Positions 21,235 to 53,014 of a stretch of 64,000 nt of DNA are shown here, piece by piece. Below the pieces are notes generated by a model that saw only the letters and a program-made list of their open reading frames with translations, did not search any database and was not told the origin of the DNA. This DNA is from Planctomycetota bacterium (GTDB lineage: Bacteria > Planctomycetota > UBA1135 > UBA2386), in contig OZ245006.1 of the NCBI GenBank assembly GCA_965223545.1, positions 1,184,001-1,248,000 of the forward strand. Direction: 5' to 3'. Within the stretch, counting starts at the first letter, position 1. Each line of letters starts with the position of its first letter. Made by a program: the position numbers and the translations under genes.

Positions 21235-23409
21235 ATGCTGACCTCGATGCTCCTGATCGCGGCCGCGCAGCCGCAAGTCCCCGACCCCCACTTGCGCGTG
21301 GACCAGTTCGGCTACCGCCCGCTCGCCGTCAAGGTCGCCGTCCTGCGCGAGCCTCGCATTGGCTACGACGCGCCGGCGCCGTTCGTGCCGGGCCCGGCGG
21401 TCGAGGTGCTGCGCGTCGCCGACGGCTCGGTGGCTTGGGCCGGCACATCGGTGGCTTGGAGCGGCGGCGCGACGCACGCGCAGTCCGGTGATGGAGCTTG
21501 GTGGGTCGACTTCTCGGCGCTGCAGGAAAGCGGTGCGTTCGTCGTCCACGACCCGGCGAGCGGCCGGCGGTCGGCCCCGTTCGAGATTGGCACGGCGGTC
21601 TACGACACCGCGCTGCGCGCCGCGCTCCGCATGTTCTTCTACCAGCGGTGCGGAGTCGCGAAGGCGGCGCCCTACGCCGAGGCCGGGTGGACCGACGGCG
21701 CCTGCCACGTCGGCGCCGAGCAGGACACCGACTGCCGCGCCGTCGGCAACCCATCGCCGGCCACCAGCCGGGATCTGAGTGGCGGTTGGCACGACGCCGG
21801 GGACTACAACAAGTACGTCAACTTCGCCGATCAGCCGCTGCACTTGCTGCTCGACGCCTACCGGGCGACCCCGGCCTTCTCGCGCGACGATCGGGGCATT
21901 CCGGAGTCGGGGAATGGCGTGCCGGACATCCTCGACGCGGCGCGCGTGGAGCTCGACTGGTTGCGCAAGATGCAGAACGCGGACGGGTCGCTGTTGCACA
22001 AGGTGTCGGTGACCGACTGGTCGACGGCGAGTCCGCCCAGCGCCGACCGCGCGCCGCGGCGCTACGCGCCGCCGACCGCGTCGGCGACGGTGTCGGGGTG
22101 CGCGGTGTTCGCACACGCGGCGTACGCGTTCGGGGCGCGGCCGGACACCGCGAGCCAGGCCTATGCGCGCCAGCTCGAGGCCGACGCGGTGCGCGCTTGG
22201 CAGTGGCTCGCCGCCAATCCCAACGCGATCCCGTCGAGCTACACCAACGCCGGCTTTCAGAGTGCTGCCGCCGAGGACAGTGCGTACTGGCAGGACATGA
22301 ACCGGTTGTCGGCGGCGGTATGGCTCTACGCGTGCACCGGTGACCCCACCTACCTCGCGTGGTTCGACGCGCGCTGGCAGCAGTCCAACCTGGCGCGCTG
22401 GAGCTGGGCCTCGCCGTACGAAGTGGAGTTCCACCTGCCGATGCTCGCGTACGGCGACTTGCCCGGCGCGACGCGGTCGGTCGCCGATGCAATCCGGCGG
22501 ACGTTTGCCGCATCCGTCAGCGGTGCCGCGCACTTGGGGGAGGTCGCGGCGGGCATCGACGCCTACCGCGCCCCGCTCGGCGATCAGGACTACGTCTGGG
22601 GCAGCAACGCCACCAAAGCCGGGCGGGGGTTGCTGTTCGTCCTGCTCAACCGATACGGGCTCGCGCCGGGAGTGGCGCGCGCCGCGATCGCCGCCGCCGA
22701 GGACTATCTGCACTACTTGCACGGGGTGAACCCGCAGGGCTTCGCCTTCCTCACCGGAATGCCGGCGGCGGAGGGCGCGGTGACCGAGATCTACCACGGT
22801 TGGTTCGCGGACGGCACGCCCTGGGACAGCAGCCGGACGTCGCCGATCGGCCCGGCTCCCGGGTTCGTGCCAGGCGGCGCCAACCCGACCTACAAGCCCG
22901 ACCCCGGCTATCGCGGCCCGCCGATCGCACCACCGCAGGGACAGCCGGCGCAGAAGAGCTATCGCGACTGGAACACCGGGTGGCCCGAGAACTCGTGGGA
23001 GGTCACCGAGCCATCGCTTTCCTACCAGGCGCCCTACGTCGCGCTGCTCGGTGCGTTCGCGGTCGCGCCTCCGCCGCGGCTGGCACTGTCGGTGTCCCCA
23101 CTCGTCGCAGGCGCTGCGGCGGACTGGACCGTAGGCGGGGCAGCGGCCGGCCAGCTCGTCGCGATCGCGTGGGCGTTGGCGCCGGGGCGCACGCGCATCG
23201 CGCTCCCGACCTGGCCACTCGACTTGGGCTTGGCGCTGTCGTTTGCCCCGCCGGGCCCAGTGCTCGGCGCCGGCGTCGCCGGCGCGGCCGGGCAGTGGAC
23301 CCTGACGGTGGGCTCGCTGCCGGCGGCGGTCGCCGGAGCGCGGCTCTGGTTCCAGGCCAGCGCCGCGGGCACTGTCGTCCCGCTGCACTCGGCCGTCGTC
23401 GCGCGCTGA
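21235..23409 (+). CDS. Glycoside hydrolase family 9 with N-terminal Ig-like domain and a C-terminal beta domain
   Basis: LRVDQFGY, FFYQRCG, DLSGGWHDAGDYNKY, YVWGSN, YLHGVNP, SWEVTEPSLSYQA. Confidence 0.92.
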   Translation: MLTSMLLIAAAQPQVPDPHLRVDQFGYRPLAVKVAVLREPRIGYDAPAPFVPGPAVEVLRVADGSVAWAGTSVAWSGGATHAQSGDGAWWVDFSALQESGAFVVHDPASGRRSAPFEIGTAVYDTALRAALRMFFYQRCGVAKAAPYAEAGWTDGACHVGAEQDTDCRAVGNPSPATSRDLSGGWHDAGDYNKYVNFADQPLHLLLDAYRATPAFSRDDRGIPESGNGVPDILDAARVELDWLRKMQNADGSLLHKVSVTDWSTASPPSADRAPRRYAPPTASATVSGCAVFAHAAYAFGARPDTASQAYARQLEADAVRAWQWLAANPNAIPSSYTNAGFQSAAAEDSAYWQDMNRLSAAVWLYACTGDPTYLAWFDARWQQSNLARWSWASPYEVEFHLPMLAYGDLPGATRSVADAIRRTFAASVSGAAHLGEVAAGIDAYRAPLGDQDYVWGSNATKAGRGLLFVLLNRYGLAPGVARAAIAAAEDYLHYLHGVNPQGFAFLTGMPAAEGAVTEIYHGWFADGTPWDSSRTSPIGPAPGFVPGGANPTYKPDPGYRGPPIAPPQGQPAQKSYRDWNTGWPENSWEVTEPSLSYQAPYVALLGAFAVAPPPRLALSVSPLVAGAAADWTVGGAAAGQLVAIAWALAPGRTRIALPTWPLDLGLALSFAPPGPVLGAGVAGAAGQWTLTVGSLPAAVAGARLWFQASAAGTVVPLHSAVVAR

Positions 23410-23426
23410 ACGAGACGCGGTGCTAG

Positions 23427-23447
23427 CCCAACTTCCGCAGTTCGACG
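23427..23447. repeat. IS terminal inverted repeat (left)
   Basis: CCCAACTTCCGCAGTTCGACG, preceded by CTAG (23423-23426). Confidence 0.9.
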
Positions 23448-23491
23448 GGTCGTCACGTTGAAAAGCAACGACTTACGTCGATTGGTTGGCA

Positions 23492-25252
23492 CTACATCGC
23501 GGTCGAACGGAGTGGCGCGGGGACGGATAGCCTCCTGGGTAGCTGGATGCCGAGCCGGTCGAGCAGGTGCGCCTGCGCCTCGTTGGGGGTGACCACGCAG
23601 CGGACCCGGAGTTCGCGGCCGTCAGTAGTTGGCAGGAGCACGTCTGCGCTTTGGACCTGACGGAGCTCCTCGAGGATGGCGGCCGGGCTGTTGCCGAGTC
23701 CGGCCTTCTCCTGCCAGAGCTCGAGCGTTTTCCACAAGGCGTAGGCGAGGAAGCAGACGAGGATGTGCGCCCTGACCCGGTCCTCGCGTTGATGCCACAC
23801 CGGGCGGATCGACAGCTCGGACTTCTGGATCCGAAACGCGGACTCAGCATCAGTGAGCTGGATGTACGTCCGCCAAAGCTCCTCATCTGTCCAACCCGTC
23901 ACGTTGGACCTGAGCAGGTAGCACCCGGCGCTCTGGTCCACCCAGTTCGTGTTCTCACAAGCCTCCACGGCAAGCCCCGATGGTCGATCCGGGGCTTCGA
24001 TCAACGAAACCGAGAAGCACGTGGAGGCCCGCGAGTTCTGGGCCAAGATGCGTCCGATCTGTTGATTGACGCGGTCCCGTTCGATCGACTTCTTCGACGC
24101 CGCCAGTCGGCGTTCGAGCGACGCAAGCCTCGCGCGAATGCGTTCGGCTGCTCGCGCGACAATTGCGGCGTCCTTCTCGATGCGCGCCTGGGAGCGACAC
24201 AGGATGAACGTCTCCTCCCCGTCCTCGCTCGGGCAGAGCTTGACCTCGACATCCTCACGAATGCTGCGCCAGTCTCGACGGTCGACGATCTCCTGTTCGA
24301 AGCGGCGCAGGTCCGAACGCGATGCGCCGATGACGTACCGTCGCCTTCCCTCCTTCAACCATTTCAGGTTGCGCTTGCTCACCATTCCGCGGTCCATGAC
24401 CCAGATGCGATCAGCAGCACCGAATCGCCGCTCCATCGTCTCGACGATCTCGCGGACCGTCGTGACGTCAGTCCGATTGCCGTCGAACACTTCGTGCGCA
24501 AGAGGGATTCCCTGTCTGGTCACGACCAGAGCGATGCAAACCTGTTTGCAGTCAGGCCGGTGATCTCGGCTGTAGCCACGCTGCGCCTGGGGGTTGCCCA
24601 GCATGAGGCCTTCGAAGTAGGTCGAGGTCACGTCGTAGAGCAGCAAGTCGTACTGAACGTCGAACAACTCGCCGAGCCGTGCGCGGAGATGCTGCTCCAG
24701 CGCCTCTTTGTGCGGCAGGATCTGGTCGAGAGCCCGGTAGAGCCGGTCGTCGTTGACCTTGCCTTCCGGCAGGCCAAGCAGGTCGTCAAGCGCGGTCTGG
24801 CGGTACAGGACTTCAGCCAGGTGCAGCTCGCTGGAGGGCATGCACAACCGACAGATGACCATCGCTGCCGCCATCGTCGACCACGGGACATCTTCACGGC
24901 CCCGCGGCATGAGCTCCCAGAGTGCGTCGTCGAACTTCAGTGCGTGCCACAGCGCCAGGCCGACGAAAACGTCGCCGAAGCGGCGTGTCCGGTCGAGGCT
25001 GACCTCCTTCAAGCGAATCGACTCGACCGGGTCGTCGTCTGTCACCGGTGGCTCAAACAGGCTCGGGTGCATTCGGCGACCGGTCATCCGATCTGCCAGC
25101 GCACGAGCCCGGCGTCGCCCCTTCGCATCCAGTTTGCCCAGCTGCGCGATCACCTCCTGCCGCACTCGACGACCGTGCCGCACCGACCGAACGAGGAGCC
25201 AGTACTCGTGGGTCTTGCCGTTCTTTCTGACCGTCTTGCGTCGCAGGTACAC
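23492..25252 (-). CDS. IS1634-family DDE transposase
   Basis: (M)YLRRKTVRKNGK..YW.LV.SVR N-terminus, LYRALD, LYDVTSTYFEG, RGYSRDHRPDCKQ, VMDRGM, ESAFR..KSEL.IRPVWH, RAHILVCFLAY; GTG start at 25252. Confidence 0.93.
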   Translation of the reverse strand: MYLRRKTVRKNGKTHEYWLLVRSVRHGRRVRQEVIAQLGKLDAKGRRRARALADRMTGRRMHPSLFEPPVTDDDPVESIRLKEVSLDRTRRFGDVFVGLALWHALKFDDALWELMPRGREDVPWSTMAAAMVICRLCMPSSELHLAEVLYRQTALDDLLGLPEGKVNDDRLYRALDQILPHKEALEQHLRARLGELFDVQYDLLLYDVTSTYFEGLMLGNPQAQRGYSRDHRPDCKQVCIALVVTRQGIPLAHEVFDGNRTDVTTVREIVETMERRFGAADRIWVMDRGMVSKRNLKWLKEGRRRYVIGASRSDLRRFEQEIVDRRDWRSIREDVEVKLCPSEDGEETFILCRSQARIEKDAAIVARAAERIRARLASLERRLAASKKSIERDRVNQQIGRILAQNSRASTCFSVSLIEAPDRPSGLAVEACENTNWVDQSAGCYLLRSNVTGWTDEELWRTYIQLTDAESAFRIQKSELSIRPVWHQREDRVRAHILVCFLAYALWKTLELWQEKAGLGNSPAAILEELRQVQSADVLLPTTDGRELRVRCVVTPNEAQAHLLDRLGIQLPRRLSVPAPLRSTAM

Positions 25253-25394
25253 GTCCGCCGCCTCGCACACAGTTGTCGTGCTCCCTGCCACACCGATCAA
25301 CGGGGCGGGTTGGCACTACACGGCCGATCTGCGCCGCCGCGACGGTGGATAGCGGGCTGGCGCCGCGCCGAGGCTCCGAATTGGCCTCAAAAAT

Positions 25395-25415
25395 CGTCGA
25401 GCTGCGGAAGTTGGG
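25395..25415. repeat. IS terminal inverted repeat (right)
   Basis: CGTCGAGCTGCGGAAGTTGGG (reverse complement CCCAACTTCCGCAGCTCGACG), followed by CTAG (25416-25419). Confidence 0.9.
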
Positions 25416-25460
25416 CTAGGAGCCCTGGTCAAGGCAGCGCTGGCACCCGCCCCACCGAGA

Positions 25461-27909
25461 TCACTGAATGGTCATCGCGAGCCCATTCGACGCCGAGACA
25501 CCCGACGCCGGACACTGCGGCCCGATGGTCGATGCCAGCCAAACGAACTGCGCGACGAAGCTCGTTCCGACAAGGCCCGCGCGACTGGGCACACGCACCG
25601 AGAAGTCCGCGGCACCCCGCGCATCGCTCTGTATCGGAACCGCCAGCGTCCAAGCGCCCGCGGGATCGACCCAGAAATCCACGCCAGCCACCCGGATCGG
25701 CGCGGTCGCCGCTTGCGCGCCGAAGTAGGCAGCGCCAAATCCCGAGGCCGGGGCGTTGCCACACGTCACAGCGAACGTCGTGCCCACCAAGGGCATTGCG
25801 TCGATCCCGATGGGCAGCGGCCCGGTACACCCGGGGCTCGACGCACCAAAAGTACTCGCGCCGGTGGGCAGAAGGTCCAGGCTGGTCATCACCGCGTCGC
25901 TACCGCCAGCGTAGACGGGCTGGAATGCGCCCGGTGTCACCGGGTACTTCATCTCGGCAACACCCACGACGATCGCCGCGTCCACATCGTCGATCGAGAC
26001 CCCGACAAACGCCTCGCTGCCACGACTGCTCCGAACGAAAGTCGAGTAGATCAGCCGGTCTCCTTTCGCGGATAGCTTCGTGACGAACGCTTCGTTTGTT
26101 CGCGCGGAAGTGGCGAACAGCGGTTGATAGCTGCCGATCGTGGTGGGGTAGTTCGGCGATGCGGTCATTCCGACGACAACGGCCTCACCGCGGGAAGTGA
26201 GCGCTAGTCCCAATGGGTGGTCGGGACCGAAGCCGCCGAGATACGTTGCGAAGTTGACGCCACTTCGTCGCCAGCCCACGCCAAGACGTCGTAAACCCCG
26301 TGACCGTCATAGCCCCGGCTGCATCCATCGCGATCTGCCGGATGCCTTCGCCGTCGCTGCCGCCGATGTAGGTGGAGAAGACGAGGGACGACCCGCTGGG
26401 GTCGAGGCGAGCAATGAAGCCGTCGTTGCCACCCTGCAACGTCGTACCATGCGCCCCCGGAGTCGTCGGAAAGTCCGTCGACCCCGTCGCTCCCGCGACC
26501 GTCGCGGCCCCCGTTGCGTCGGTCACCACGGCGAAGCATGCGTCCCCGAGGAAACCACCGAGCAGAGTGCTGTAGACCAGCGCGCTCCCGCCCACCGCAA
26601 CGCGCGTCACGACCCCATCGGGCTGCACCCCCTGACGCACGGTCTGCAACGCGCCCGCAGTCGTGGGGTAGTTCCCCGACGACGTGCTCCCGACCACAAT
26701 GGCGCTGTCGTCTGGAGCGAGGGCAACGGCCGCGCCGTAATCCTGACCGGGGCCACCGATGTACGTGGACTCGATCAGGCCACCGCCAGAAACCGACAAC
26801 CGCGACAAGAAGGCGTCGGAGTTGCCGTTGGCCGTGCGATCGTAGGCAGTCGTTGTGGTGGGATAGTCGGGGCTGTCCGTCGAACCGGGGATGACCACAT
26901 GACCCAACCGATCGATCGCGATTTTCCCAGGGCTGTCCTCGCCCACACCTCCGAGCAGAGTCGCGTATCGCAGCTGTCCGGCAGCAGAGAGTCGCGCGAC
27001 GAAGATGTCCTTGCCGCCGTTGAACGTCGGATCGTACGCCCCGGGCGTCACCGGCAAGTCTCCGGAGCGGGTCGTTCCGACGACGATCAGCTCACCCGAA
27101 CGCATGCGCGCAACGTCGAGCGCCGCGTCCTCCCCGCTGCCACCGAAGTACGTGGACCACGTGAGGCCGGGGTCGATGATCAGCGTTCCCGGTCCACGGG
27201 CGCCGTGCAGCTCGAACCCGAAGGCCCGATCGCCGACCCGCCGGAAACTGCAGCGAACCGGGCGCGCCGTCCCATCGCGCTCCTCCCATCCAATCGGCGC
27301 GGATTGTCGTAGCACTCCCGTAGAGCCCGCCAGTAGCAGATCTCCGTTCTCGGCGACGAAGGGCGCGTCGAAACCGACACACTCCACGACCACCTGCCTC
27401 GGATCCGCCCCCGGTTGCAACGCCAGGTCGTAGTGGACCCGACCATCCGGTGATCGTCGAAGGAGGAGATCGACACCGTCGTACAACCCGCGGCAGATCA
27501 GCGACTCGTAACAACGCACGCCGTGTCGCCAGCGCGCCGGATCCGAGCCCTTGATGAACGAGAACCTCTCCGGCCGGAGCTCCTCGCCGACAAGCCGACA
27601 CTCCGGCGAAGACCCTCGAAACGAGAGTCGCAATTCACGACCGTCGTTCTGAACCGGCCGCAGGACAATCGAGGTCGAACCGATGCCGATCGTCATCTGC
27701 GACGTGGCCGCCCCGAAGACGACGCCTTCATGCCACTGGCCTGCGTTCTCCACGACCCCCCCGGAGAGGAGCGGCGCGACCCCCCTGACGACGCCAGGGA
27801 TACCCGGAGCCTGTGGGGCACACGACGTCCTGGCCGCTGCAACGCCACCCGCGCACAGCGCCAGAACGATACGGAGGTCAAACCACTGGACGGAAGGAAC
27901 GGCCATCAC
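25461..27909 (-). pseudogene. SBBP beta-propeller repeat protein, split by a frameshift/deletion near 26280
   Basis: ORF 26185..27909 (VENAGQW, LIIDP.LTWSTYFGG, G.T.S.DFPTTPGA repeats) continues in another frame as ORF 25461..26279 (FATYLGG...EAFVTKLS...YSTF plus C-terminal domain); one repeat lacks its central part. Confidence 0.75.
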
Positions 27910-28000: not shown

Positions 28001-31000
28001 TCAGCGGCCGATGAGGAGTTCCAGGCCGTTGGTGGCGCTTGCGGTCGCGAAGAGCGGGCCCGTGGGGTCGAGGACGAAGGCCTGGGCGAAGACGCGCAGG
28101 CCGGCGAGGGCCGCGACCGGTGGCACGGGCAAGGCGATCTGCGCTTTGCCCGGCACGCGCGTGATCACTGGCATCGCGACGGCGAGGCGTGGGTCGACGT
28201 GGAGGGTGCAGCCGCCAGTGGAGAGCGCGGACGGCGACCGAGCGACGTAGAGGGCCCCCAGGGAGTTCGGCATGACGCCCTCGGCGTGCAGTGCGAAGCT
28301 CTGCGCGCCCACCAACGGCAAGCGGTCGGCACGCAGGGTCGAGGAGCCGAAGCCGCCCGGGCACGGAGTGCCGTAGGGCACCGCCGCGCCGCCACCGAAC
28401 AGGGCGAGGTCGAGCGACCAGAGCTCCAGACCGAGCTGGCCGTCATCGGCGGCGCACCAGACGTCGGAGCCGACCACGGTGAACCGCCGGGGAGCCGAGC
28501 CGCCGCTGCCGTGCAAGTCGGCGACGCGCTGCGTCCCGGCAGTGGTGCCGTCGCTGACCCACGGCTCGGCGCCCGCCGCATCCGTGCCCGAGAAGACGGC
28601 GATCTCGTTGTCGCCGAGGCGGGTGATGTCGTAGGCATCGACGTCGCTGAGCATCGCGGTCCCCGCCGGCGTGCCGTCCGACGACCACAGCGTCCGGGTC
28701 GGCCAGGCAACCGAGAACAACACGGTCGAGCCGACGTCGACGAACTCCAAGGGCGCGCTGCCGACGGGTCCCGGATTGATGTCAGCGAGCTGCAGGGTGC
28801 CGGCGGCGGTTCCGTCGGTCACCCAAGGCTCCGGATTTCCCGGGACCTCCGAGCCGCTGAACAAGAGCCTGCCGCCGAACGCGGCCCCTTGCAGGAAGAC
28901 GACCCCCGACCCGGTCGGGTCGAGATCGACCACTTGCACGGTCCCCGCATTGGTGCCGTCGCTCTTCCACAGCTCGATGCCGGAAACCCCGTCGGCGGCG
29001 GCGAAGAACAGGACACCGTCGACGTCGACGGTTCCACCGAGGAACGTGTACGGGCTCACACCAGCGGCCGGCCCCGGGTTGATGTCGGCGACCATGCCCG
29101 TGCCGGCAGCGGTTCCATCGGTCTTCCACAGCTCGAAGCCCTCGGCCGCGGAATGCCCGACGAAGTAGCCGATGCCACCGGCCAGCACCATGTCGCGCGG
29201 GGCGACCCGACTGCTCGGCAGGGCAGTGACCACGGCGGTCCCCGCCGCCGTGCCGTCGGTGCGCAGCAGCGCATCGGAGCCGGCCACGGTGGCCAGGAAG
29301 AACAGCGCACCGTTGATCACGACGCCTCTTCCCGGCTCCGACGCGAGCGCGCCCGGCTCGAGGTCGGCCAAGAGCCGCGTGCCGGCGGGCGTGCCGTCGC
29401 TGCCCCATGGCTCGCGGCCAGTCGCCCCCTCGTGGGCCGCATAGACGGCGAGATCACCGATCACGCCGACCGTTGTCGGATCGCTCCCGCCCGGCCCCGG
29501 GTTGACGTCCCGGAGCAACACCGCCCCGGACGGCGAGCCGGCCGACGCCCAGAGCTCCGTGCCGCGCACACCGTCCGTCGCCGAGAAGACCGTGACGCCA
29601 CTCAACTGCGCGAACTCGCGGGGGTGCGCGTCGGCAGTGATGCCAGGCCCGGTCGGGTTGAGATCCGCGAGCAGCACCGTGCTGGCGGCGTCGCCGCTCG
29701 TCACGTACGGCTCCATCGAGATCGCACCGGGTTCGACACCGTTGAACACGTAGAGGCCTCTCAGCGTGCCGATGAAGCCCGCCGCTCCGGAGCCCATCGG
29801 GTGCAGATCCTTGATCATCCGCGTGCCGGCAACGGTGCCGTCGGAGAAGTAGAGCTCGGTCCCGGCCGCCAGCGTGCGCGCCCGGAACACGACACCGCGC
29901 GGGAGCAGGCCGAAGTCGGCGGGAAACGAGGAGCCCAGGCCGGGCTCGATGTCGGCGAGCTGCACCGTCCCGGCGGGGGTGCCGTCGCTGACATACGGCT
30001 CGAGATCGCCGAACCGACCGCGGCCGACGAAGTAGCACTTGCCCAGCGTCGGGGTGAATTCCCGCGGAGCCGAGTTGCCAACGGGCAGACGCGCCATCAG
30101 TTGCGTGCCGGCCGCGGTCCCGTCCGACACCCAGGGCTGGACGCCGTTGCCCCAGTCGGTCGCCGCGAACACCACGCGATTCAGCCAAGCCGTCATGCCG
30201 CTGATCGCCGCGCTGCCGCGCGTGTTGATGTCCTTGACCAACACCGTACCCGCGGCGGTTCCGTCGGTCTTCCACAGCTCCCCGCCGAGCAGCGGCACCA
30301 TGGCGGTGAAGTAGACCTCGCCACCAGCCAGGGTCATCTGCCGGGGGTCCGAGCTGCCGAAGGCATTGAGGTCGATCAAGCGCGTGGTTCCGGCCGCGGT
30401 CCCATCGCTCACCCACAGCTCGCGGTCCCCGCTCGCATCCGTCGCCGCGAACACCGCGCGGCCGCCCACGACCACGATGTCGGCCGGCGCCGAGCCGCCC
30501 GGCCCGGGCAACAGGTCGGCGACCATCCGGGTGCCGGCCGGCGTGGCATCGGTCACCCAGAGCTCGACACCGGAGACGCCGTCATCGGCGGCGAAGAACA
30601 GGAGACCACCGCCGTGCGCCATGTGCTGCGCATCGGAGGACGCGCTGCCGGGGGCGATGTCGGCAAGGCGAAAGGTACCGGCCGCGGTCCCATCGCTCAC
30701 CCACGGCTCGGCGCCACTCTGTCCGTCGTCGGCACTGAACACCAACAGCGTTCCGAACGCAGCCATCTCGGTGATCGAAGACCACTCCGCGCCGGGGTTG
30801 ATGTCCTTGACCAGCCGGGTTCCCGACGGGGTCCCATCGGTGACGTACAGCTCCTGGCCGGTGTCCTCGTGCGTGGCCGGAAAGAACAAGAAGCTGTCCA
30901 CGTTCAACCCGACGCCCGGGTTCGAGAACCGCGGCTCGGGCTGGGTGTTGATGTCGTGCACCAGGCGCTGGCCGGGCAGAAACGAGACGGTGAGCAGTGC

Positions 31001-31042
31001 CGCGGTCGCGGAGACCGCGCCGAATCCGAGAGACTTGCGCAT
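28001..31042 (-). CDS. ELWxxDGT-repeat secreted protein with C-terminal beta domain
   Basis: Many E(L/P)W.(S/T)DGT.AGT..(L/V).D(I/L).PG repeats; signal peptide ...LPGQ. Confidence 0.92.
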   Translation of the reverse strand: MRKSLGFGAVSATAALLTVSFLPGQRLVHDINTQPEPRFSNPGVGLNVDSFLFFPATHEDTGQELYVTDGTPSGTRLVKDINPGAEWSSITEMAAFGTLLVFSADDGQSGAEPWVSDGTAAGTFRLADIAPGSASSDAQHMAHGGGLLFFAADDGVSGVELWVTDATPAGTRMVADLLPGPGGSAPADIVVVGGRAVFAATDASGDRELWVSDGTAAGTTRLIDLNAFGSSDPRQMTLAGGEVYFTAMVPLLGGELWKTDGTAAGTVLVKDINTRGSAAISGMTAWLNRVVFAATDWGNGVQPWVSDGTAAGTQLMARLPVGNSAPREFTPTLGKCYFVGRGRFGDLEPYVSDGTPAGTVQLADIEPGLGSSFPADFGLLPRGVVFRARTLAAGTELYFSDGTVAGTRMIKDLHPMGSGAAGFIGTLRGLYVFNGVEPGAISMEPYVTSGDAASTVLLADLNPTGPGITADAHPREFAQLSGVTVFSATDGVRGTELWASAGSPSGAVLLRDVNPGPGGSDPTTVGVIGDLAVYAAHEGATGREPWGSDGTPAGTRLLADLEPGALASEPGRGVVINGALFFLATVAGSDALLRTDGTAAGTAVVTALPSSRVAPRDMVLAGGIGYFVGHSAAEGFELWKTDGTAAGTGMVADINPGPAAGVSPYTFLGGTVDVDGVLFFAAADGVSGIELWKSDGTNAGTVQVVDLDPTGSGVVFLQGAAFGGRLLFSGSEVPGNPEPWVTDGTAAGTLQLADINPGPVGSAPLEFVDVGSTVLFSVAWPTRTLWSSDGTPAGTAMLSDVDAYDITRLGDNEIAVFSGTDAAGAEPWVSDGTTAGTQRVADLHGSGGSAPRRFTVVGSDVWCAADDGQLGLELWSLDLALFGGGAAVPYGTPCPGGFGSSTLRADRLPLVGAQSFALHAEGVMPNSLGALYVARSPSALSTGGCTLHVDPRLAVAMPVITRVPGKAQIALPVPPVAALAGLRVFAQAFVLDPTGPLFATASATNGLELLIGR

Positions 31043-33991: not shown

Positions 33992-34197
33992 ATTCTTCCC
34001 GAAGGCGGCGATGGCGAAGGTCGGTCACCCGATCTATGGACGAGCGCGCCCGCGGGAGTCGGGAGTTTGCTTTTTTTGTGACGACAGCCGGCGAAGAGGC
34101 ACCAGGGGAAGTGGCCCGCCACCCGGTGCCCGCGCTGTGCAACAATTGGCATGCCGTCCAAACCAATGGCCGAACCGATTCCCTCAGGGCGCCACAG

Positions 34198-36828
34198 ATG
34201 ATCCGTCGCATTCACCCTCGGAGCCCGCAGGGGTCGCTGCGCCCGCATCTGGTTGCCGTTGCCGCCGCCCTCGGTGTCGGCGGTCCACTCTCGTCGCAGG
34301 AGTTGATGTCCGCGCTGCCGACGGCCCGCTTGCCGGCGAGCGGCTTCGACAGCCGCGGAATCGCGATGCGCGACGTCGACGGTGACGGGGATGTGGACGT
34401 CCTGTTCAGCACCTCGCGCCGCGGGATGCGGCTACTGCGCAACGTCGGCGCCAGCGGGCACTTTCGCGACGACTCGGCGCTCGCGTTCGCGACGGTGAGC
34501 ACGGCCGCGGGGAGCCGGCTGGCGGTGGACGATCTCGACGGCGACGGAGATGCCGATCTGCTCCGCCCGTGCTACGGCACCCAGGACGAGCTCTACCTCA
34601 ACGACGGCACCGGCACCTTTAGCGCGGCGACCGCTACCGGCCTACCCCCCGACGCCGCCTACTCGCTGGGCATCGCGCTGGGTGACGTCGACGCCGACGG
34701 CGACCTCGACGTCGCCCTCGCCAGCGACTCGGTGATCGGCTCGACGGCGGCGGTCCGGCTGTACTTGAACAGCGGCAACGCCTCGTTCACCGACGTCTCG
34801 CAGGCCCGCCTGCCGGCGCAGCGCGGCGTGGGCCGCGACGTCCGGTTCCTCGACGCCGAGGGGGACGGCGATCTCGACCTGGTCACCGCCGACCCACTCC
34901 AGCTGTGGATCAACGACGGTAGCGGCAGCTTCATGGAGAAGGCGGCTGCGCTGCCCTCGGCAGGTCCGTTCGTACGACTCGCGGTGGGTGACCTGGACGG
35001 CGACGGAGACGAGGACTTGATCGCCGACGACTCGTCCATCGGCGTGGCCCTCGACAACGACGGTGCGGCGACATTCTCCGCGCGCTCGCTGCCGCCGGTG
35101 TTCGGCTACGGCGATTTTGGCGAGACCCGACTCGTGGACGCAGACGGGGACGGCGACCTCGACGTGCTGTACGCGCGCGGCAGTCAGTACACGCCGGGGT
35201 CGCGCGACCGGTTCCTGCGCAACGATGGCAATTGGCAGTTCGTCGACGTCAGCGCGACCGCGCTCCCCCCGCGTGACGGGGTCACCTACGCCGTCGCCGT
35301 CGGTGACGCCGATGGCGACGGCGATGCCGACGTCGTCGTCGGCGGCGTCGCGCGCGACGAGCTGTGGCTCAACGACGGCGCCGGGGTGTTTGCCATGGCG
35401 ACAGGCGGTCGGCTGCCGCCCCCCATGCAAGCGACTGCGCAGACCGCGACGGCCGCTGACCTCGACGGCGACGGTGACCGGGATCTGCTCGTCGCGGGGC
35501 TGTACTTGGAGCCGCAGCTCTGGCTCGGCGATGGCACCGGCCAGTGGAGCGGCGATCCCGCGGCGCGCCTGCCGAGCCTGCGGCAGGTTTTGACGCGGCA
35601 GGCGCGCTCCTTCGACGCCAACGGCGATGGCGCACCGGAGCTGGTTCTGGCCGCCTCTGGCCAGAACCAGCTCTTGCTGAACGACGGCACCGGGCGCTTC
35701 AGCCGCGTCACCAGCATCGCCATGCCGCTCGACAACGATGATTCGTACGACATCGTGCCCGTCGACGTCGACGCGGATGGCGACCTCGATCTGGTGGTCG
35801 CCAACCGCGACCAGAACCGCCTCTACCTGAACTCCGGCGCGGGCTCGTTCACCGACGCCACGGCCGGCCGCCTGCCGGTCAGCTCCGCCACGACCGCCGC
35901 CGTTGCCACCGGGGATGTCGACGCCGACGGCGACGTCGACTTGCTGCTGGCGCACCGCGGCACGGCCAACCAGCTGCTGCTCAACGACGGCCAGGGCTCG
36001 TTCTCCCCAGCGCCGACCTTCCCTGGGTCGAGGCCGAGCGCGGGGGCGTGGTTGGCGGACGTGGATGGCGACGGCGATCTCGACGCGCTGGTGCGCGACA
36101 CGAACGCGATGCGTGTGCTGATCAATGATGGTCTCGGTGGCTTCACCGACGCCACCACGGGCCGGTTTCCCCCACCACCGGCACAGACCACCGTCAGCGC
36201 GGCGGCACCGGCCGACATCGATTCGGACGGCGACATCGACGTCTTGGTCGGCCACCGGCTGACCTCGCCGGGAGCGGTCGACCTCGTGCGGCTCTATCTC
36301 AACGACGGCGGCGGGACCTTCGTCGACGTGACCGGCACGCGATCTCCATCGAATGTCCTCGGCCATGTCAGCGGGGTCCCGATCTTCCCACTCGACATCG
36401 TGCTCGAGGACTTCGACTCCGACCGGGATCCCGACGCGTTGTTGCTGACGTCGACCGCGCCCGTGGTGCTGTTCAACTTGACGCGGCACCTGGACGCGGT
36501 GTGCTGCGCGACGACGGCGGGCGCACTGCGCCTCGACCTGTACGCCCGCTGTTGCCCAGGCACCTCGAGCCTGGGCGCAGTGGCGATCTCCGCCGGCATC
36601 GCCAGGACCACAGTGCCCGGCATCGGCGAACTTCTGCTGCAGCCAGCGTCGATCATCGGCCTGCCCGTGATCCCTATTCCCGGTGCGACTGGACTTGCGC
36701 AAGGGACATTGGCGATCCCGAACGTGCCAAGCCTGGTGGGTGGTGCGTTCGCTAGCCAGGCAATCGTCGTCGGACCGGGCGCGGCGCTGGGATTCACCAA
36801 CGCGCGCTTCGACGTCGTTGTCCGATGA
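34198..36828 (+). CDS. FG-GAP/VCBS-repeat secreted protein with C-terminal beta domain
   Basis: Many (G/A)D.DGDGD.D and L.LNDG.G.F repeats; start re-assigned to MIRRIHP..., signal ends ...PLSSQ. Confidence 0.9.
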   Translation: MIRRIHPRSPQGSLRPHLVAVAAALGVGGPLSSQELMSALPTARLPASGFDSRGIAMRDVDGDGDVDVLFSTSRRGMRLLRNVGASGHFRDDSALAFATVSTAAGSRLAVDDLDGDGDADLLRPCYGTQDELYLNDGTGTFSAATATGLPPDAAYSLGIALGDVDADGDLDVALASDSVIGSTAAVRLYLNSGNASFTDVSQARLPAQRGVGRDVRFLDAEGDGDLDLVTADPLQLWINDGSGSFMEKAAALPSAGPFVRLAVGDLDGDGDEDLIADDSSIGVALDNDGAATFSARSLPPVFGYGDFGETRLVDADGDGDLDVLYARGSQYTPGSRDRFLRNDGNWQFVDVSATALPPRDGVTYAVAVGDADGDGDADVVVGGVARDELWLNDGAGVFAMATGGRLPPPMQATAQTATAADLDGDGDRDLLVAGLYLEPQLWLGDGTGQWSGDPAARLPSLRQVLTRQARSFDANGDGAPELVLAASGQNQLLLNDGTGRFSRVTSIAMPLDNDDSYDIVPVDVDADGDLDLVVANRDQNRLYLNSGAGSFTDATAGRLPVSSATTAAVATGDVDADGDVDLLLAHRGTANQLLLNDGQGSFSPAPTFPGSRPSAGAWLADVDGDGDLDALVRDTNAMRVLINDGLGGFTDATTGRFPPPPAQTTVSAAAPADIDSDGDIDVLVGHRLTSPGAVDLVRLYLNDGGGTFVDVTGTRSPSNVLGHVSGVPIFPLDIVLEDFDSDRDPDALLLTSTAPVVLFNLTRHLDAVCCATTAGALRLDLYARCCPGTSSLGAVAISAGIARTTVPGIGELLLQPASIIGLPVIPIPGATGLAQGTLAIPNVPSLVGGAFASQAIVVGPGAALGFTNARFDVVVR

Positions 36829-43898: not shown

Positions 43899-44645
43899 AT
43901 GAAGTACTCCCTCCTGCCCGCGATCGCGCTGTGTGTGACCCCAGCGACCGCCCAACTCCAGTCGGTCGTCGGCCCGGTCATCGCGCCGCTCGGGTGCTCC
44001 GTCCGGATCTCGTTTTCCAACGACACCGCACAGAGCTGGAGCCACGGCGTCTGCCCGTACGTCGTGCGCGACGCCGCTGGCCAGCAGATCGCGCCGGGCG
44101 CCTGCACGTTGCAGCTGGCGATCACCGCACCCGGTGGCACGTTCTCGACGAGCTGGCCACAGATCGATGCGCAGGGCAACCAGGTGTTGCCCGGCTCGTA
44201 CGTGGTCGAAGTGATGCTGCCCGATGGCACCAGCCACCAGCATCCAATCACGATCTCGCCGTCGACGACCCCCGCGGTCGCCCCGATCGGCGTGGCGCGC
44301 ACCGGCACGACGCGCAACTACGGGTTGTGCGCACCGTCCCAACCCAACGGCGCCTACCTCATGCTGGCGTCGCTGACCGCGAACCAGGGTTTCGCCACCT
44401 GCAGCGGTCGGTTTCCGCTGGACGCGGACCCCCTTCTGTTCCACTCGGCCACCGGCCAGGCGCCGTTCGTCGGTTTCGCCGGTCCGCTCGACGCCCGCGG
44501 CGAGACCACGGCGCCCGCGCTCGCGCTGCCGCAACTGCCAGCGCTGGTCGGCCTGCCACTGCACTTCGCCTTTGCCGCGGTCGATCCGAGCCAACCGTGC
44601 CCGGTGGCGGCGATCTCCACCGCGCAGCGCATCGTCATCGGTTGA
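43899..44645 (+). CDS. Small secreted protein: FlgD/Ig-like N-domain plus C-terminal beta domain
   Basis: Signal MKYSLLPAIALCVTPATAQ; W.Q.D.QG.QV.PG.Y motif; C-terminal domain shared with other proteins in the window. Confidence 0.75.
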   Translation: MKYSLLPAIALCVTPATAQLQSVVGPVIAPLGCSVRISFSNDTAQSWSHGVCPYVVRDAAGQQIAPGACTLQLAITAPGGTFSTSWPQIDAQGNQVLPGSYVVEVMLPDGTSHQHPITISPSTTPAVAPIGVARTGTTRNYGLCAPSQPNGAYLMLASLTANQGFATCSGRFPLDADPLLFHSATGQAPFVGFAGPLDARGETTAPALALPQLPALVGLPLHFAFAAVDPSQPCPVAAISTAQRIVIG

Positions 44646-46679: not shown

Positions 46680-46694
46680 GCGCGCCGCGCGCGC

Positions 46695-47982: not shown

Positions 47983-48024
47983 ACGTGGTCTGCACGCGCA
48001 TTGCGATCGAGAAGAGGAGAAGCG

Positions 48025-48053: not shown

Positions 48054-48138
48054 GTATCGTGCGCAGGCCATCGCGACGACACCCGCCGCGACCCACGGCC
48101 TGCGGCTGGCGTTGGCCCCGTGACGCTGTGGCCCGACG

Positions 48139-50982
48139 CTATTCGACGACGAACACCTGTACGCTGCGCGGTGGCATGAAGCCCGGCGCCGCGGCGTCGT
48201 GGTGCTGCAGCTTGATGTCGGTGGTGCCCAGGCCCCAGCCGAAGGTGCTGTCCCCGTTGCCCTGACCGACGAGGTACTCCACCACGCCCGCGCCCGCGGG
48301 GCGCAGCCCCTTGACGACGAAGTCTTGGTCGATGCCGTCATAGTGGGCCGGGTCGAACGACCCGGTCCACGCCGAGGGGAAGTCGGACCAGTTGACGAAG
48401 ACGATGCCGACCCGATCTTCACCCGGAGTGCGCCAAACGCCGTGCATCACGGTCGCCACCGGGTACTGCTGGATGGTCAGGGAGTCCTCGTTGAAGTGCA
48501 GCACGCCCGGCGTCGCCGGCGAGGTCAGCGTCGCCACCGCGGTCGACGGGTTGGGCACCGAAGTCACCACCAGTGGCGGGTAGCCCAGCGGGCCACGCGG
48601 CGGCAGCCGCAGCGGCCGCTCGGCAATGCCACCGCACAGGTACTGGCCGGCCTCGTCGGTGCACGACGTGGCGGCATGCACCCGCTGCAGGAACGCGATC
48701 ACGTCATTCTGCTGCGGCACGCTCGGATCCCGCGCCTCGACCACGCCGTTGCGATTCACGAACAAGGTGAAGTCCTTGTAGTCGTAGAAGAACGGGTACA
48801 CCTGCGGCTTCATGCCCTGCACCAACCGCAGTGCCGTGACCATGCGTGTGTAGTCGGCCCACTGCTGCCAGGTGAGGCCCAAGCCCGGCGGCTGGCCGCC
48901 ACCGAGATCGGCGCGCACGCCGGTCGTGTGCAGCATCACACCGATCGCGTCGGCGCGCGAGTACTCGTGATACACCGGGTTCCACAGCGGCGGGTTGGGG
49001 TTGGCGGTCTCCACCGGGGTGGGGAACGGATTGCCCGCGATCAGATCCAGGACGGTCATCTGCTGCGTCTGCAGCGGCACCGGCTTGATGCCGTGCTGGC
49101 CGAAGTCGTAGTGGCCGGCGTAGAACTCCTGGGCGGCCTCGGTGAGCACGAACGGGATCTCGGGGTGCTGCGCCCCGGTCTTGTCCCGGCCCACTCGCGC
49201 ACGGATTACGTCGAACGCGCGGTTGCCGCCCTCGACGAAGGCGGTGCCGCCGTGGTGGCGGAAGTTGAACGGCAAGGGCCCGTTGGGCGACGGGTAGCGC
49301 AAGAAGCTGCCCTGGCCGCCGAGCGTATCGAGGAACACGCCGCCGAGCTGCGGGGTGGTGTTCATGATGTCGTCGTAGAGCTCGGTACCCATCCACCCCG
49401 GCACTGCGACGGTGTGGCCGAAGTCGACGATCATGCCGCCGGTCGGCAGCGGTGGCGGCTGGGTGCCGTCGCGCAGATAGACGAACCAGTCGGGATCGAA
49501 GCTGGGCCAATCGGCGTCGTTGACGTACAGCGGCAAGGTGTACATCGACATGTTGATGCCGGCGGCGTGGGCGCGCGCGATCTCGTTGCGCGCCTCGGTC
49601 GTCGGCTCCTGGAACGCACCCGCTGCCGCGGTGAACGGCCGTGGATTGTAGCCGGGCCCGATCGGGTCCTCGACGCCATCGCCCTTCAGCCATTTCTGCC
49701 ACTCCATGAACACCGGCGTCGCCGAGCCGTCCGGCTCGCGAAAGACCTGTTGGAAGTCCAGCGCCGTGTCCGTGAAGGTCTGGAACATGGCCGGCAGGTC
49801 GGCGTTGACCTTGTTGAAGACTGAGGTCGCCACCATGACCGAGCTGCGCGGGTAGTCGGGATTGAGCGCGTAGGCCGGATCGGCGACCCCGACCAATCCC
49901 ATCTCGCTGCGCACGAACTCGCGATAGTGGCTGGTGACGTCGTACCAGAACGTGTCGTCAGCCGCTTCGAGCGCGCACAGCACGGCGGGATATCCGCTCT
50001 GGAAGTAGTTGAGCCAGGGTGAGGGCCCGTACTCGGGGAAGTACACCGGCGCCCACCGGTAGTACTCCAGCCCCAGCGGATCGGGCACGCAGTCGTGTTG
50101 GAAGCGCTTGTAGTAGCCCTCGTGGTCCTCGGTCGAGAAGTAGAGGATCTTGCGGAATGCGGTGAACAGCTCGTTGCCGAGCGGAATCGATGTCGGGTCG
50201 CCACCGTACAACGCGCTGAACTGCATCTGCTGCCCGCGCGCCGGGTGCTCCACATCGGCGGACAAGCCGAACAGCCGCCAGAGCGACATCGGCAAGTTGG
50301 TCGCCGGCAGCACGAAGTTGGTCGACAGCGGGATCAGAATTCGTGCCTGCGCGGCGCTGCCAGGCTGGCGTGCGTAGACGATCGGTGCGTGCACCTCATC
50401 CACGGTGTGCTGCTCGGTGCCGCCCGGAATCTGCAGCCGGATCACGCGGCTGTTCCACTCGGCGCGGTTGGGCGACGTCGCGGGGATCTTGACCTCCAGC
50501 TCGACCAACAACACCGACGCCGGGCTCTGGCACGGAATCGCGCAACCCATCCAGCTGAAGATCGCGTGCGTCGGCGCCGATCGCGAGTCGACCCAGGTCT
50601 CGAAGTTGAGCGCGCTGTCGGGCAGCACTTCGGTCGGCGTCTGACTGGTGAGTGGCCGGGTGACGACTTTCCACAGACCGCGCGGCTGGCCCAGCGGCGG
50701 TGTTGCGGCGTAGGCGAAGCGCGTCACCGTGCCGTCCGCCCGCGTGCCGCGGTGGCCGATCTCGGTGAGCACGGCGCCGACTGAGGCATCCCGGGTGAAC
50801 GTCAACGCGATGCGCCGGTCGCCGCTATCGACCGAGCCGACCTGCAGCTGGTCGCCCGGGTTCCAGCGCAGGCGCGACATGCGCAGCTTGGAGAAGGGGG
50901 CACCTTGACCAAATGCCGCAGTGGGGAGCAGACTGACACTGACTGTCACCAGTGCCGCCAGGAGAGCTGTGGTGCGAAGCAT
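48139..50982 (-). CDS. Secreted DUF6259-like protein (putative glycoside hydrolase)
   Basis: Signal ...AFGQ; MQFSALY, LYFSTED..GY.K, WYD....YREFV, GVFLD, HGG, TE..QE.Y, PLW..VYHEY motifs recalled for this family. Confidence 0.7.
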   Translation of the reverse strand: MLRTTALLAALVTVSVSLLPTAAFGQGAPFSKLRMSRLRWNPGDQLQVGSVDSGDRRIALTFTRDASVGAVLTEIGHRGTRADGTVTRFAYAATPPLGQPRGLWKVVTRPLTSQTPTEVLPDSALNFETWVDSRSAPTHAIFSWMGCAIPCQSPASVLLVELEVKIPATSPNRAEWNSRVIRLQIPGGTEQHTVDEVHAPIVYARQPGSAAQARILIPLSTNFVLPATNLPMSLWRLFGLSADVEHPARGQQMQFSALYGGDPTSIPLGNELFTAFRKILYFSTEDHEGYYKRFQHDCVPDPLGLEYYRWAPVYFPEYGPSPWLNYFQSGYPAVLCALEAADDTFWYDVTSHYREFVRSEMGLVGVADPAYALNPDYPRSSVMVATSVFNKVNADLPAMFQTFTDTALDFQQVFREPDGSATPVFMEWQKWLKGDGVEDPIGPGYNPRPFTAAAGAFQEPTTEARNEIARAHAAGINMSMYTLPLYVNDADWPSFDPDWFVYLRDGTQPPPLPTGGMIVDFGHTVAVPGWMGTELYDDIMNTTPQLGGVFLDTLGGQGSFLRYPSPNGPLPFNFRHHGGTAFVEGGNRAFDVIRARVGRDKTGAQHPEIPFVLTEAAQEFYAGHYDFGQHGIKPVPLQTQQMTVLDLIAGNPFPTPVETANPNPPLWNPVYHEYSRADAIGVMLHTTGVRADLGGGQPPGLGLTWQQWADYTRMVTALRLVQGMKPQVYPFFYDYKDFTLFVNRNGVVEARDPSVPQQNDVIAFLQRVHAATSCTDEAGQYLCGGIAERPLRLPPRGPLGYPPLVVTSVPNPSTAVATLTSPATPGVLHFNEDSLTIQQYPVATVMHGVWRTPGEDRVGIVFVNWSDFPSAWTGSFDPAHYDGIDQDFVVKGLRPAGAGVVEYLVGQGNGDSTFGWGLGTTDIKLQHHDAAAPGFMPPRSVQVFVVE

Positions 50983-51130
50983 GGGATCCCGAAGCGAAAG
51001 AGCCTTCCCGAGTCTCTACCGGACTGCACCGGGCAACCGCGCCAAGGGGCGAAACCCGATTGACTCGAGGCCCGCCAAAACAGCGGACCGTTCGAGCTTC
51101 GCCCTCGGCCGCCGCGCCAGCAAGTCCGCG

Positions 51131-53014
51131 ATGGCAATCGCCAGACGCGCGTACGGCACACGAGAGGCGCGACAGTTTCTCGCGGGCCCGCCTGGCGCAC
51201 GGTGGTTGGCGACCGCGCTCCCGTTCGTCATCCTCGCCGCAGCGCTACACGGACAGCCAACGAGCCCGAACGTCGTGGTCGTCGTCGCCGACGACTGGTC
51301 GTGGCCACATGCGTCTGCGTTTGGCGACCCGGTAGTGCGTACACCGGCCGTCGATGCGCTCATCGCAGCCGGAGTCCTGTTCCGCCGCGCGTTCGCGCCG
51401 TCCCCCTCATGCACGCCGGCGCGCGGAGCGCTGCTCGCCGGGCAGGAGATCTGGCGTCTGGGCGAGGGCGCCAACCTCTGGAGCACGCTCGACGCGTCGA
51501 TTCCGGTATATCCAGACCTGCTCGAGAGTGCCGGCTATCACGTCGGCTTCGAGGGCAAGGGCTGGGGTCCGGGAGACGACACTGCTGGCGGCCGCACTCG
51601 CAACCCCGCCGGAACATGCTACGCCGACTTCGACGCGTTCCTCGCGGCGCGGCCCGAGGGCGCCCCGTTTTGCTATTGGTCCGGTCCAGAAGAACCGCAC
51701 CGTCCGTACGCGCCGGGGTCGGGGATCGCCGCCGGTCTGGACCCTGCTGCTGTGCGCGTGCCCGGCTTCCTTCCCGACACCCCGGCGGTGCGCTCCGACC
51801 TGCTCGACTACTACGCCGCTGTCGAGCGCTTCGACCGCGGCGTCGGGTGGCTGCTGGCACGTCTCAACGCCACCGGCGAACGGGATGACACCCTTCTCGT
51901 CGTGACGAGTGACAACGGGATGCCGTTCCCGCGGGCAAAGGCCAATCTCTACGACGCGGGCACGCGAGTGCCGCTGATCATCCAGTGGCCCGACGCGTTC
52001 CAGGGGAACCGCGTGATCGACGACTTCGTCACCCTCACTGACATCGCGCCCACGCTGTTGGCCGCCGCGGGGCAAGCGCTGCACCCCGAGATGACCGGCC
52101 GCAGCCTCCTGCCTGCACTGCGCTCCGGTCGGTCGGGGCAAGTGCAAGCCGGTTGGGACCACGTCGCACTCGGCCGGGAGCGGCACAACCCGAGCCGGCA
52201 CTGCGAGCAAGTGGGCTATCCGATGCGCGCGGTGCGCGAGGCCGGCTTCCTCTACGTCGAGAACCTCGCTCCGCAGCGCCCCCCCGCCGGCGTCGACCTG
52301 GCTCTGTGGAGCACGGTGCGGCGCCCCTTCCCGGATGTGGACCACGGGCCCACTAAACGGCTGATGATGCGGCCGGGCGCATGGCCGCTGCAGTTTGCGC
52401 TCGCATTCGAGCGCCGGCCCCCCGTCGAGCTCTACGACCTGAGAACCGATCCCGAACAACTGGTCAACGTCGCCGCCGACCCGCGTTTCGCGGCGGATCG
52501 AGACCGGCTCGCCAGCCAGCTGGCGCGCCATCGCGCCGGCACCGGCGATCCGCGCCGCCGCGGCCGCCCAGCGGCGTTCGACGGCTACCCTTACCGGCAC
52601 CCCGCGTTTTCGCCGCCGACGCTGACGGCATCACCGCTGCATCTGTCGGTGTCGGCCGGCGGAGAGCAGGTCTGGTCGCTCCGCACCGGCACCGCGCACG
52701 CGGGGCGGACGTACATCGTGCTCGGGTCGCTCACCGGCACCGCGCCCGGCATCGTCCTCGGCCGCGTGACGATCCCCTTGGTTGCAGATGCCTACACGGC
52801 CTGGACGGCACAGCCAACCATCCCCCTGCTCTTCCAGCACATCGGCCGCCTCGATGGCAACGGCAACGCCGACGCGGCATTCATCGCCGAGACCGGCGCC
52901 CTGGCACCGGCCATGGCGGGCATGACCCTGTTCCACGCCTTCGCCGTCATCGAGCCGTACCTCGGCCTGCCGGCGATGGCGAGCAACCCGTGCCGGCTGA
53001 TGCTTCGTCGTTGA
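51131..53014 (+). CDS. Formylglycine-type sulfatase with C-terminal beta domain
   Basis: PNVVVVVADD, SCTPARGALLAG (CxPxR), GKGW, PHRPY, SDNG.PFPRAKANLYDAG.RVP, ELYDL..DP.QL.N; start uncertain. Confidence 0.92.
   Translation: MAIARRAYGTREARQFLAGPPGARWLATALPFVILAAALHGQPTSPNVVVVVADDWSWPHASAFGDPVVRTPAVDALIAAGVLFRRAFAPSPSCTPARGALLAGQEIWRLGEGANLWSTLDASIPVYPDLLESAGYHVGFEGKGWGPGDDTAGGRTRNPAGTCYADFDAFLAARPEGAPFCYWSGPEEPHRPYAPGSGIAAGLDPAAVRVPGFLPDTPAVRSDLLDYYAAVERFDRGVGWLLARLNATGERDDTLLVVTSDNGMPFPRAKANLYDAGTRVPLIIQWPDAFQGNRVIDDFVTLTDIAPTLLAAAGQALHPEMTGRSLLPALRSGRSGQVQAGWDHVALGRERHNPSRHCEQVGYPMRAVREAGFLYVENLAPQRPPAGVDLALWSTVRRPFPDVDHGPTKRLMMRPGAWPLQFALAFERRPPVELYDLRTDPEQLVNVAADPRFAADRDRLASQLARHRAGTGDPRRRGRPAAFDGYPYRHPAFSPPTLTASPLHLSVSAGGEQVWSLRTGTAHAGRTYIVLGSLTGTAPGIVLGRVTIPLVADAYTAWTAQPTIPLLFQHIGRLDGNGNADAAFIAETGALAPAMAGMTLFHAFAVIEPYLGLPAMASNPCRLMLRR

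Follow-up and report, generated by a model that had tools for sequence, protein, structure and literature searches.

The last 110–140 amino acids of six proteins encoded in a 64,000-nucleotide stretch of Planctomycetota DNA (contig OZ245006.1, positions 1,184,001 to 1,248,000; hereafter “the window”) represent three subtypes of one domain family. This domain is real, lineage-restricted, and uncatalogued. It recurs in hundreds of genes of the genome that contains the window (8.1 Mb, 70% GC, 91% complete), lies almost always at the C terminus, and in homologous proteins or related genomes its place is taken by dockerin-like tails or by type IX secretion system (T9SS) tails.

Three subtypes of one domain family

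A reading of the window made from its letters alone (the sequence-only reading) had proposed that the six tails can be aligned by eye. The six open reading frames (ORFs) lie at the positions listed below and end in the residues reported by that reading. When each pairwise tail alignment was compared with 500 shuffles, only 4 of the 15 pairs were clearly significant: SBBP with ELWxxDGT (z of 11.9), the 248-amino-acid protein with the sulfatase (7.3), ELWxxDGT with FG-GAP (4.8), and SBBP with FG-GAP (4.0). The GH9 tail is weak in pairwise alignment, with a best z of 3.3. Thus, the visual likeness was overstated, and it is profiles that establish a single family.

Profiles made without the window proteins recover all six tails, as three subtypes. 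The subtype A profile (150 tails) finds the ELWxxDGT, SBBP, and FG-GAP tails and, at an expect value (E) of 2e-5, that of the 248-amino-acid protein. The subtype B profile (29 tails) finds the tails of the sulfatase and the 248-amino-acid protein, and the subtype C profile (46 GH9 orthologs) finds the GH9 tail. In profile-profile comparison, subtype A is joined with B at 95.9% probability (E 5.5e-9) and with C at 95.4% (E 2e-8); the direct comparison of B with C is weak (21.6%, E 1e-3). Searches iterated from one tail at a time end in a common set of 365 proteins, without a reversed decoy, and the median tail-to-tail identity is 26%. An N-terminal extension and a Cys pair characterize subtype A (ELWxxDGT, SBBP, FG-GAP); subtype B (248-amino-acid protein, sulfatase) has an extra helix and no Cys pair, and subtype C (GH9) is short. 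The carriers, meaning the proteins that bear the domain, and their domain copies are as follows (window coordinates).

21235..23409 (+): GH9 glycoside hydrolase (CelD_N plus GH9; Pfam PF02927, PF00759), carrier
23071..23409 (+): subtype C domain of the GH9 protein, ~112 amino acids, no Cys pair (E 2e-33, profile of 46 ortholog tails)
25461..27909 (-): SBBP/DUF7948 beta-propeller gene split over two frames (PF25778 on the 5′ piece; paralog comparison)
25461..25868 (-): subtype A domain ending the SBBP/DUF7948 gene (E 5e-22, profile without window proteins)
28001..31042 (-): ELWxxDGT repeat protein (TIGR04534, 17 stretches), carrier
28001..28393 (-): subtype A domain (Cys pair) of the ELWxxDGT protein, modeled copy (AlphaFold2 predicted local distance difference test [pLDDT] 92.6, beta-sandwich; E 4e-28)
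34198..36828 (+): FG-GAP repeat protein (PF13517, 11 stretches; signal-like start), carrier; start at 34198 inferred, ORF opens at 34036
36466..36828 (+): divergent subtype A domain of the FG-GAP protein (E 9e-7)
43899..44645 (+): carrier, a 248-amino-acid exported protein that belongs to no known family (no Pfam match; weak FlgD-like match, E 0.07)
44268..44645 (+): subtype B domain of the 248-amino-acid protein (E 1e-15)
51131..53014 (+): sulfatase (PF00884, PF16347), carrier; start uncertain, 51131 or 51206, ORF opens at 50921
52622..53014 (+): subtype B domain (no Cys pair, extra helix) of the sulfatase, second modeled copy (AlphaFold2 pLDDT 95.4; E 5e-29)

The SBBP/DUF7948 gene is probably broken. 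Compared with four paralogs, it has a deletion of ~23–30 codons and a frameshift near 26265, and the same letters stand there in contigs of three runs from one sample, which is possibly the source of the window. Signal peptides had been ascribed to all six proteins; this fails for the ORF with the SBBP tail, which has no signal peptide of its own and is the 3′ piece of the frameshifted gene.

Size, distribution, and catalog status

Our own codon-based procedure called 5,726 genes in this genome, of which 382 carry the domain according to all profiles together, with no reversed decoys. A core profile adds 36 carriers, at least three of them apparently false; its controls gave 0–1 reversed and 0–1 non-carrier internal matches per round. 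The total is thus ~415 carriers, or ~7% of the called genes, and further divergent tails are noticeable by eye beyond these.

The names of homologs and the taxa of ESM Atlas clusters assign this genome to Planctomycetota. Among 40 relatives from the same family or order, 39 are domain-positive, the exception being the genome G015. Up to 102 candidates were scored in each of these genomes, and in most all or nearly all matched. In an evenly drawn sample of 201 genomes from the phylum, with at most 20 candidates scored per genome, 39 are domain-positive (this genome included, and two with a single match), and the domain is nearly all-or-none by family. The many matches and restricted phylogeny that the sequence-only reading had expected of a profile search are found. 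Named loci with the domain fall in records titled Planctomycetota or its sub-taxa, plus one from Gemmatimonadetes and one from an unclassified bacterium. A library of 1.84 billion representatives yields 29,156 matches at E 0.001, counted as clusters at 50% identity. When a single tail served as the query, 0 of 20 relatives matched, a sensitivity artifact given that a profile finds the domain in 39 of 40; a word-index search with a profile comprised 10 proteins only.

The domain also appears to be undescribed, as had been suspected. The six tails and 34 subtype A tails match nothing in Pfam or NCBIfam, apart from scattered matches at E 0.017 or worse, and PDB sequences give no match at E 10. 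No Pfam family is common to the 30 nearest ESM Atlas clusters. The literature searched, which excluded subscription papers and supplements, contains no description of it.

Separately, we considered identifying the clade as Saltatorellota by means of a MamK-like actin whose end is nearly as implied by a saltatorellin primer in 10.1101/817700. This does not prove the identity, given that the actin occurs in 66 of the 201 genomes and is missing from some domain-positive ones.

Position in the protein, carriers, and export signals

The domain had been described as always terminal. Of the 382 copies, 367 end within 25 amino acids of the stop codon, 7 lie directly behind a signal peptide, and 8 are internal, so that 15 depart from this description; among the 150 best database matches, 148 are C-terminal. 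Proteins with an N-terminal copy have no second copy at the C terminus, and an N-terminal copy is also present in a protein from another genome (P0208). In two of the internal cases, a Kelch propeller and the domain precede a module that recurs in three paralogs behind Big_5-containing N termini, which are lipoprotein-type in both paralogs whose start is seen. GH9 and Kelch carriers have almost no linker before the domain. A protein at G000:C1:6995783-6997210 (-) in this genome has an apparent divergent N-terminal copy that the profiles missed.

Signal peptides and lipoboxes were assigned by crude heuristics of our own and by eye, without SignalP, and the carrier statistics rest on these heuristics. 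On this basis, signal-like starts are enriched among carriers (289/357, compared to 1,881/5,369 other genes), as the sequence-only reading had anticipated along with a strictly C-terminal position, which does not hold. Lipobox-like starts are rare relative to signal peptidase I (SPI)-type starts in carriers (5 versus 294) compared to other genes (267 versus 623; Fisher p 1e-31). Carriers are also poor in Lys and Glu. Elsewhere in the genome, a low-charge giant protein of 7,738 amino acids without the domain is encoded at G000:C1:2917634-2940847 (+).

With family labels assigned from motifs by eye, the carriers fall into ~134 families, 86 of them singletons. Propeller families nearly always have the domain (Kelch-like 44/47, ELWxxDGT 29/30, FG-GAP 27/30), and Kelch-like proteins make up 38 of the 70 longest among the 150 best database matches. 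Enzyme families have it rarely, as with sulfatases (6/38), and so does a BNR-like family (1/13).

Gln is the first polar residue after the signal core (the Q-rule) in 157 of 198 carriers (79%) and in 336 of 637 other soluble signal-bearing proteins (53%), against a background share of 10.5%. The Q-rule is thus genome-wide here and not linked to the domain. It has been described as typical of Bacteroidetes and high in a few other species, in a report whose main text does not include Planctomycetes (PMC5837995). The glutaminyl cyclase family PF05096 was found in none of five genomes; the M28-type cyclase was not searched.

Fold and anatomy of the domain

The AlphaFold2 models of subtype A (pLDDT 92.6) and subtype B (pLDDT 95.4) agree in the order of their strands and in a hairpin that follows the third core strand as an insertion, and an Ig-like fold is predicted. 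The sequence-only reading had suggested a structural comparison with the T9SS C-terminal domain (CTD). Fold searches with both models return generic Ig-like sandwiches, with best Z of 7.8–8.3 to unrelated Ig domains, a level (~8) flagged as common, and none of the rows listed is titled T9SS CTD; Foldseek gives no match at E 0.001. A likeness to ML domains (NPC2, GM2 activator) is weak (TM score 0.3–0.4) and is not used as evidence.

The best-conserved profile positions are Gly35, Gly91, Pro100, Leu105, Gly107, Gln113, and the pair Ser/Thr129-Asn130. Strand C is hydrophobic on both faces. The Cys pair covaries across 326 tails (both residues in 173, neither in 144, a single one in 9); a disulfide is therefore predicted in subtype A, and hence an oxidizing compartment. 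Charged residues make up 8% of the domain compared to 23% of other genes, and its grand average of hydropathy (GRAVY) is 0.5 versus -0.09. A helix-like hydrophobic stretch (19-residue window >1.8 in the last 40 amino acids) occurs in only 1 of 320 tails.

Exchange with dockerin-like and T9SS-type tails

Among 119 GH9 homologs, the domain is present in 56, dockerin-like repeats (by motif) in 19, an Acidobacteria-type tail in 10, a T9SS/FlgD-type tail in 9, and another tail or none in 25. The first count is partly circular because 46 of the homologs supplied the subtype C profile; independent subtype A profiles match many of those counted as domain-bearing. No homolog has both the domain and a T9SS tail (0/119). 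In named loci, T9SS-type tails occur in Bacteroidota and dockerin-like tails in Ignavibacteria.

The same exchange is seen between genomes. G015, the only one of the 40 relatives without subtype A or B, has 39 matches to the dockerin family PF00404, compared to 0 in this genome. In the 201-genome sample, none of the 18 genomes with at least 12 dockerin matches is domain-positive, where 3.5 are expected (p 0.017, a value overstated by kinship).

Export machinery and candidate partners

The sequence-only reading had proposed phylogenetic profiling for a co-occurring translocon; no export gene among those tested tracks the domain, and secretins are not specific to it. SprA (PF14349) and PorU (PF01364) were not found in this genome, G011, or G015, while both of two Bacteroidota controls were positive, and PorV (PF19572) was found in none of five genomes, its control being positive. 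The exosortase PF09721 was not found in this genome and is present in three of four others irrespective of the domain; rhombosortase was not searched. Cohesin (PF00963) is absent from five of five genomes, including this one and G015, with a positive control. Among non-carriers of at least 350 amino acids there is no long-repeat scaffold and no other large common tail family.

This genome does have a type II secretion row at C1:690-698 kb, comprising the secretin GspD, GspE, GspF, GspG, and three further pseudopilins, and a GspK-like gene lies elsewhere in the genome, outside the row. Two other secretin loci were observed. One of them (G000:C1:1170059-1174692), ~10 kb upstream of the window, encodes a pair of short secretins next to a GspK-like gene; their starts are lipoprotein-like, and no N domains were detected in them. 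In the other (G000:C1:7072001-7092000), genes for two TPR proteins, ExbB, and two ExbD proteins lie between two secretin genes, with a MamK/MreB-like actin adjoining; this row is also present in G011.

A search for partners was conducted among low-charge non-carriers. Family Y is an unnamed, highly conserved lipoprotein of ~985 amino acids with Big_5 and a propeller-like part (C1:764104-767058 [-], plus three paralogs). It is present in 36 of the 39 domain-positive genomes and in 1 of the 162 domain-negative ones. As a proven partner it was rejected, given that G015 keeps it without having the domain; family Y is therefore a clade marker, with no partner shown. Its distribution points to a single clade of domain-positive genomes, within which G015 exchanged its tails. 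Families X and Z, made up of large Big_5-type lipoproteins that have Gly-rich parts and are encoded in tandem rows (e.g., C1:354940-360241 and 377900-389340), are narrower (17/201 and 20/201 genomes), almost unannotated, and largely limited to part of the clade.

Neighboring genes in the window

A DDE transposase (23492-25300, -) lies between the GH9 and SBBP genes, and read depth rises at its end in the sample contigs, as with a multi-copy element. Directly upstream of the ELWxxDGT carrier, an ECF (extracytoplasmic function) sigma factor is fused to carboxypeptidase-regulatory-like repeats (31055-33991, -), and the ORF at 40263-42494 (-) has a start that by eye resembles a similar sigma fusion. 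A 947-amino-acid protein (48139-50982, -) with a signal-like start matches nothing in Pfam or NCBIfam and has no domain copy. A 962-amino-acid Big_5 lipoprotein-like protein (2513-5401, -) is encoded upstream of a row resembling, by eye, an Mla-type ABC transporter.

Proposed role and alternative explanations

We consider the chances about even that the tail is an uncleaved, non-covalent surface-docking module carried by hundreds of exported enzymes and adhesin-like proteins. Carriers would be exported by Sec and cut by SPI, the domain would fold in the periplasm, and the carriers would then cross the outer membrane by way of this genome's type II secretion system. A conserved hydrophobic face, formed by strands C, F, and G with the inserted hairpin, the conserved Gln, and the Ser/Thr-Asn pair, would bind an outer-membrane component. 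The domain would stay on its carrier and dock it, a role filled elsewhere by dockerins and lipid anchors. The outer-membrane component would be a lipid or lipopolysaccharide (LPS), and not a repeat scaffold, given that no protein resembling a scaffoldin was found.

The sequence-only reading had offered a secretion or anchoring signal or a docking domain. Docking fits best because the domain appears functional at either end, excludes lipid anchors, alternates with dockerin-like tails, and is hydrophobic, and because no processing enzyme was seen.

Several findings weigh against docking. The strong C-terminal bias (367/382; 148/150 best database matches) would be expected of a signal and is unnecessary for docking, and T9SS tails, which are themselves export signals, occupy the same place on GH9. 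Some low-charge SPI-type proteins lack both the domain and a lipid anchor. The replacement by dockerins within the order is represented by one genome, G015, of 2.9 Mb and 91% completeness, and this genome keeps family Y (E 2e-183) without the domain. Secretins are present in five of five genomes tested, three of them domain-negative, so that type II secretion is possible and not singled out. Finally, no partner emerged from our search.

An unlikely though serious alternative is that the domain is an export signal only, read in its folded state by type II secretion or by another outer-membrane translocon, after which carriers are released or held otherwise. Such a signal would account for the C-terminal bias and for T9SS tails swapping in, the near absence of the domain from lipoproteins would also suit soluble periplasmic intermediates, and the type II gene row is present. 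However, it is dockerin-like tails that replace the domain in GH9 homologs and in G015, none of the export genes tested tracks the domain, and its hydrophobicity (GRAVY 0.5 versus -0.09) suits binding.

We regard it as improbable that the domain self-associates, with hundreds of carriers tiling the surface as a mixed S-layer-like coat. The very high copy number and the uncharged hydrophobic surface agree with this proposal, as does the failure to find a cohesin or a long-repeat scaffold. However, 26% identity and three subtypes seem loose for a lattice, and the replacement tails in relatives are dockerin-like. Dockerins bind partners.

It is decidedly improbable that the domain is a cleaved sorting tag, exchanged for a covalent anchor by a sortase-like enzyme in the manner of the T9SS. 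The Ig-like fold and terminal position do resemble the T9SS tag, and the Q-rule is common to this genome and Bacteroidota. A cleaved signal of the T9SS or PEP-CTERM type, which the sequence-only reading had taken as its precedent, is nevertheless unsupported because copies occur at the N terminus and internally, the tails lack a membrane helix, and SprA, PorU (or another C25 peptidase), PorV, and exosortase were not found in this genome. In addition, profile similarity to T9SS tails is below 3%, and GH9 and Kelch carriers join the domain with almost no linker. It is very improbable that shuffling spread the domain as a plain accessory module, acting as spacer or substrate-binding unit, without a common envelope role: the generic Ig-like fold (best Z ~8) and the presence of the domain in only 6 of 38 sulfatases would suit it, but there are ~134 cargo families, nearly always with a single copy at one end, an all-or-none distribution by family in the phylum sample, and exclusion with lipid anchors and dockerins.

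Returning to the docking module, we speculate more broadly, and tentatively, that one large Planctomycetota clade has a surface-display system of its own. Its folded, hydrophobic Ig-like tag would be both export signal and uncleaved anchor. It would have evolved separately from the T9SS tag, could change places with dockerins, and would work with the clade-specific giant surface lipoproteins X, Y, and Z and with a Bacteroidetes-like pyroglutamate Q-rule. We infer a “system” without having demonstrated one, because the analysis identified no translocon, sortase, or scaffold dedicated to it.

Whatever its role, this is a very large unnamed family, with 29,156 clusters and ~7% of this genome's genes. 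It would be a label for the surface or exported proteome in a Planctomycetota clade that is mostly uncultured, and its profile predicts extracellular hydrolases, sulfatases, peptidases, and adhesin-like propellers. If anchoring without cleavage is true, the domain would represent a new Gram-negative surface-display route and a possible display tag.

Comparison with known sorting and docking systems

Like the T9SS type A CTD (Por_Secre_tail, PF18962), the domain is a C-terminal module, a beta-sandwich by prediction, on many unrelated Sec-exported proteins, and it occupies the same place on GH9 orthologs. It differs in being longer (110–140 amino acids), uncharged, and often equipped with a Cys pair, in occurring also at N-terminal or internal positions, and in residing in a genome where a search for SprA, PorU, and PorV found none of them. 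In the T9SS, the tag is removed and A-LPS takes its place (PMC8545088). PF18962 has no match on the six proteins or the 34 tails, and a profile of 29 T9SS-type tails has no match among the genes of this genome and <3% similarity to subtypes A, B, and C. These results bear out the earlier view that the sequence does not match the T9SS CTD.

The PEP-CTERM/exosortase and GlyGly-CTERM/rhombosortase systems (PMC1569441, PMC3237569) likewise place one lineage-restricted C-terminal tag on many unrelated exported proteins. Those tags combine a short motif with a membrane helix and a basic tail. In contrast, the tag described here is a folded domain, with a helix-like stretch in 1 of 320 tails and no exosortase found in this genome. 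SLH gives no match on the tails.

Dockerin type I (PF00404) is composed of acidic Ca-binding repeats. As with our domain, it is a terminal, sometimes N-terminal, module on exported enzymes, and the two alternate on GH9 orthologs and between genomes. Our domain is instead a predicted beta-sandwich, unlike dockerin in sequence and fold, in a genome with no PF00404 match, and no cohesin was found in this genome or G015. With dockerin type I, the “planctosome” proposed for Nemodlikiaceae (PMC6461901) is among the nearest known counterparts. Terminal sorting and docking modules are an already known kind of element, and the domain family described here is an uncatalogued one among them.

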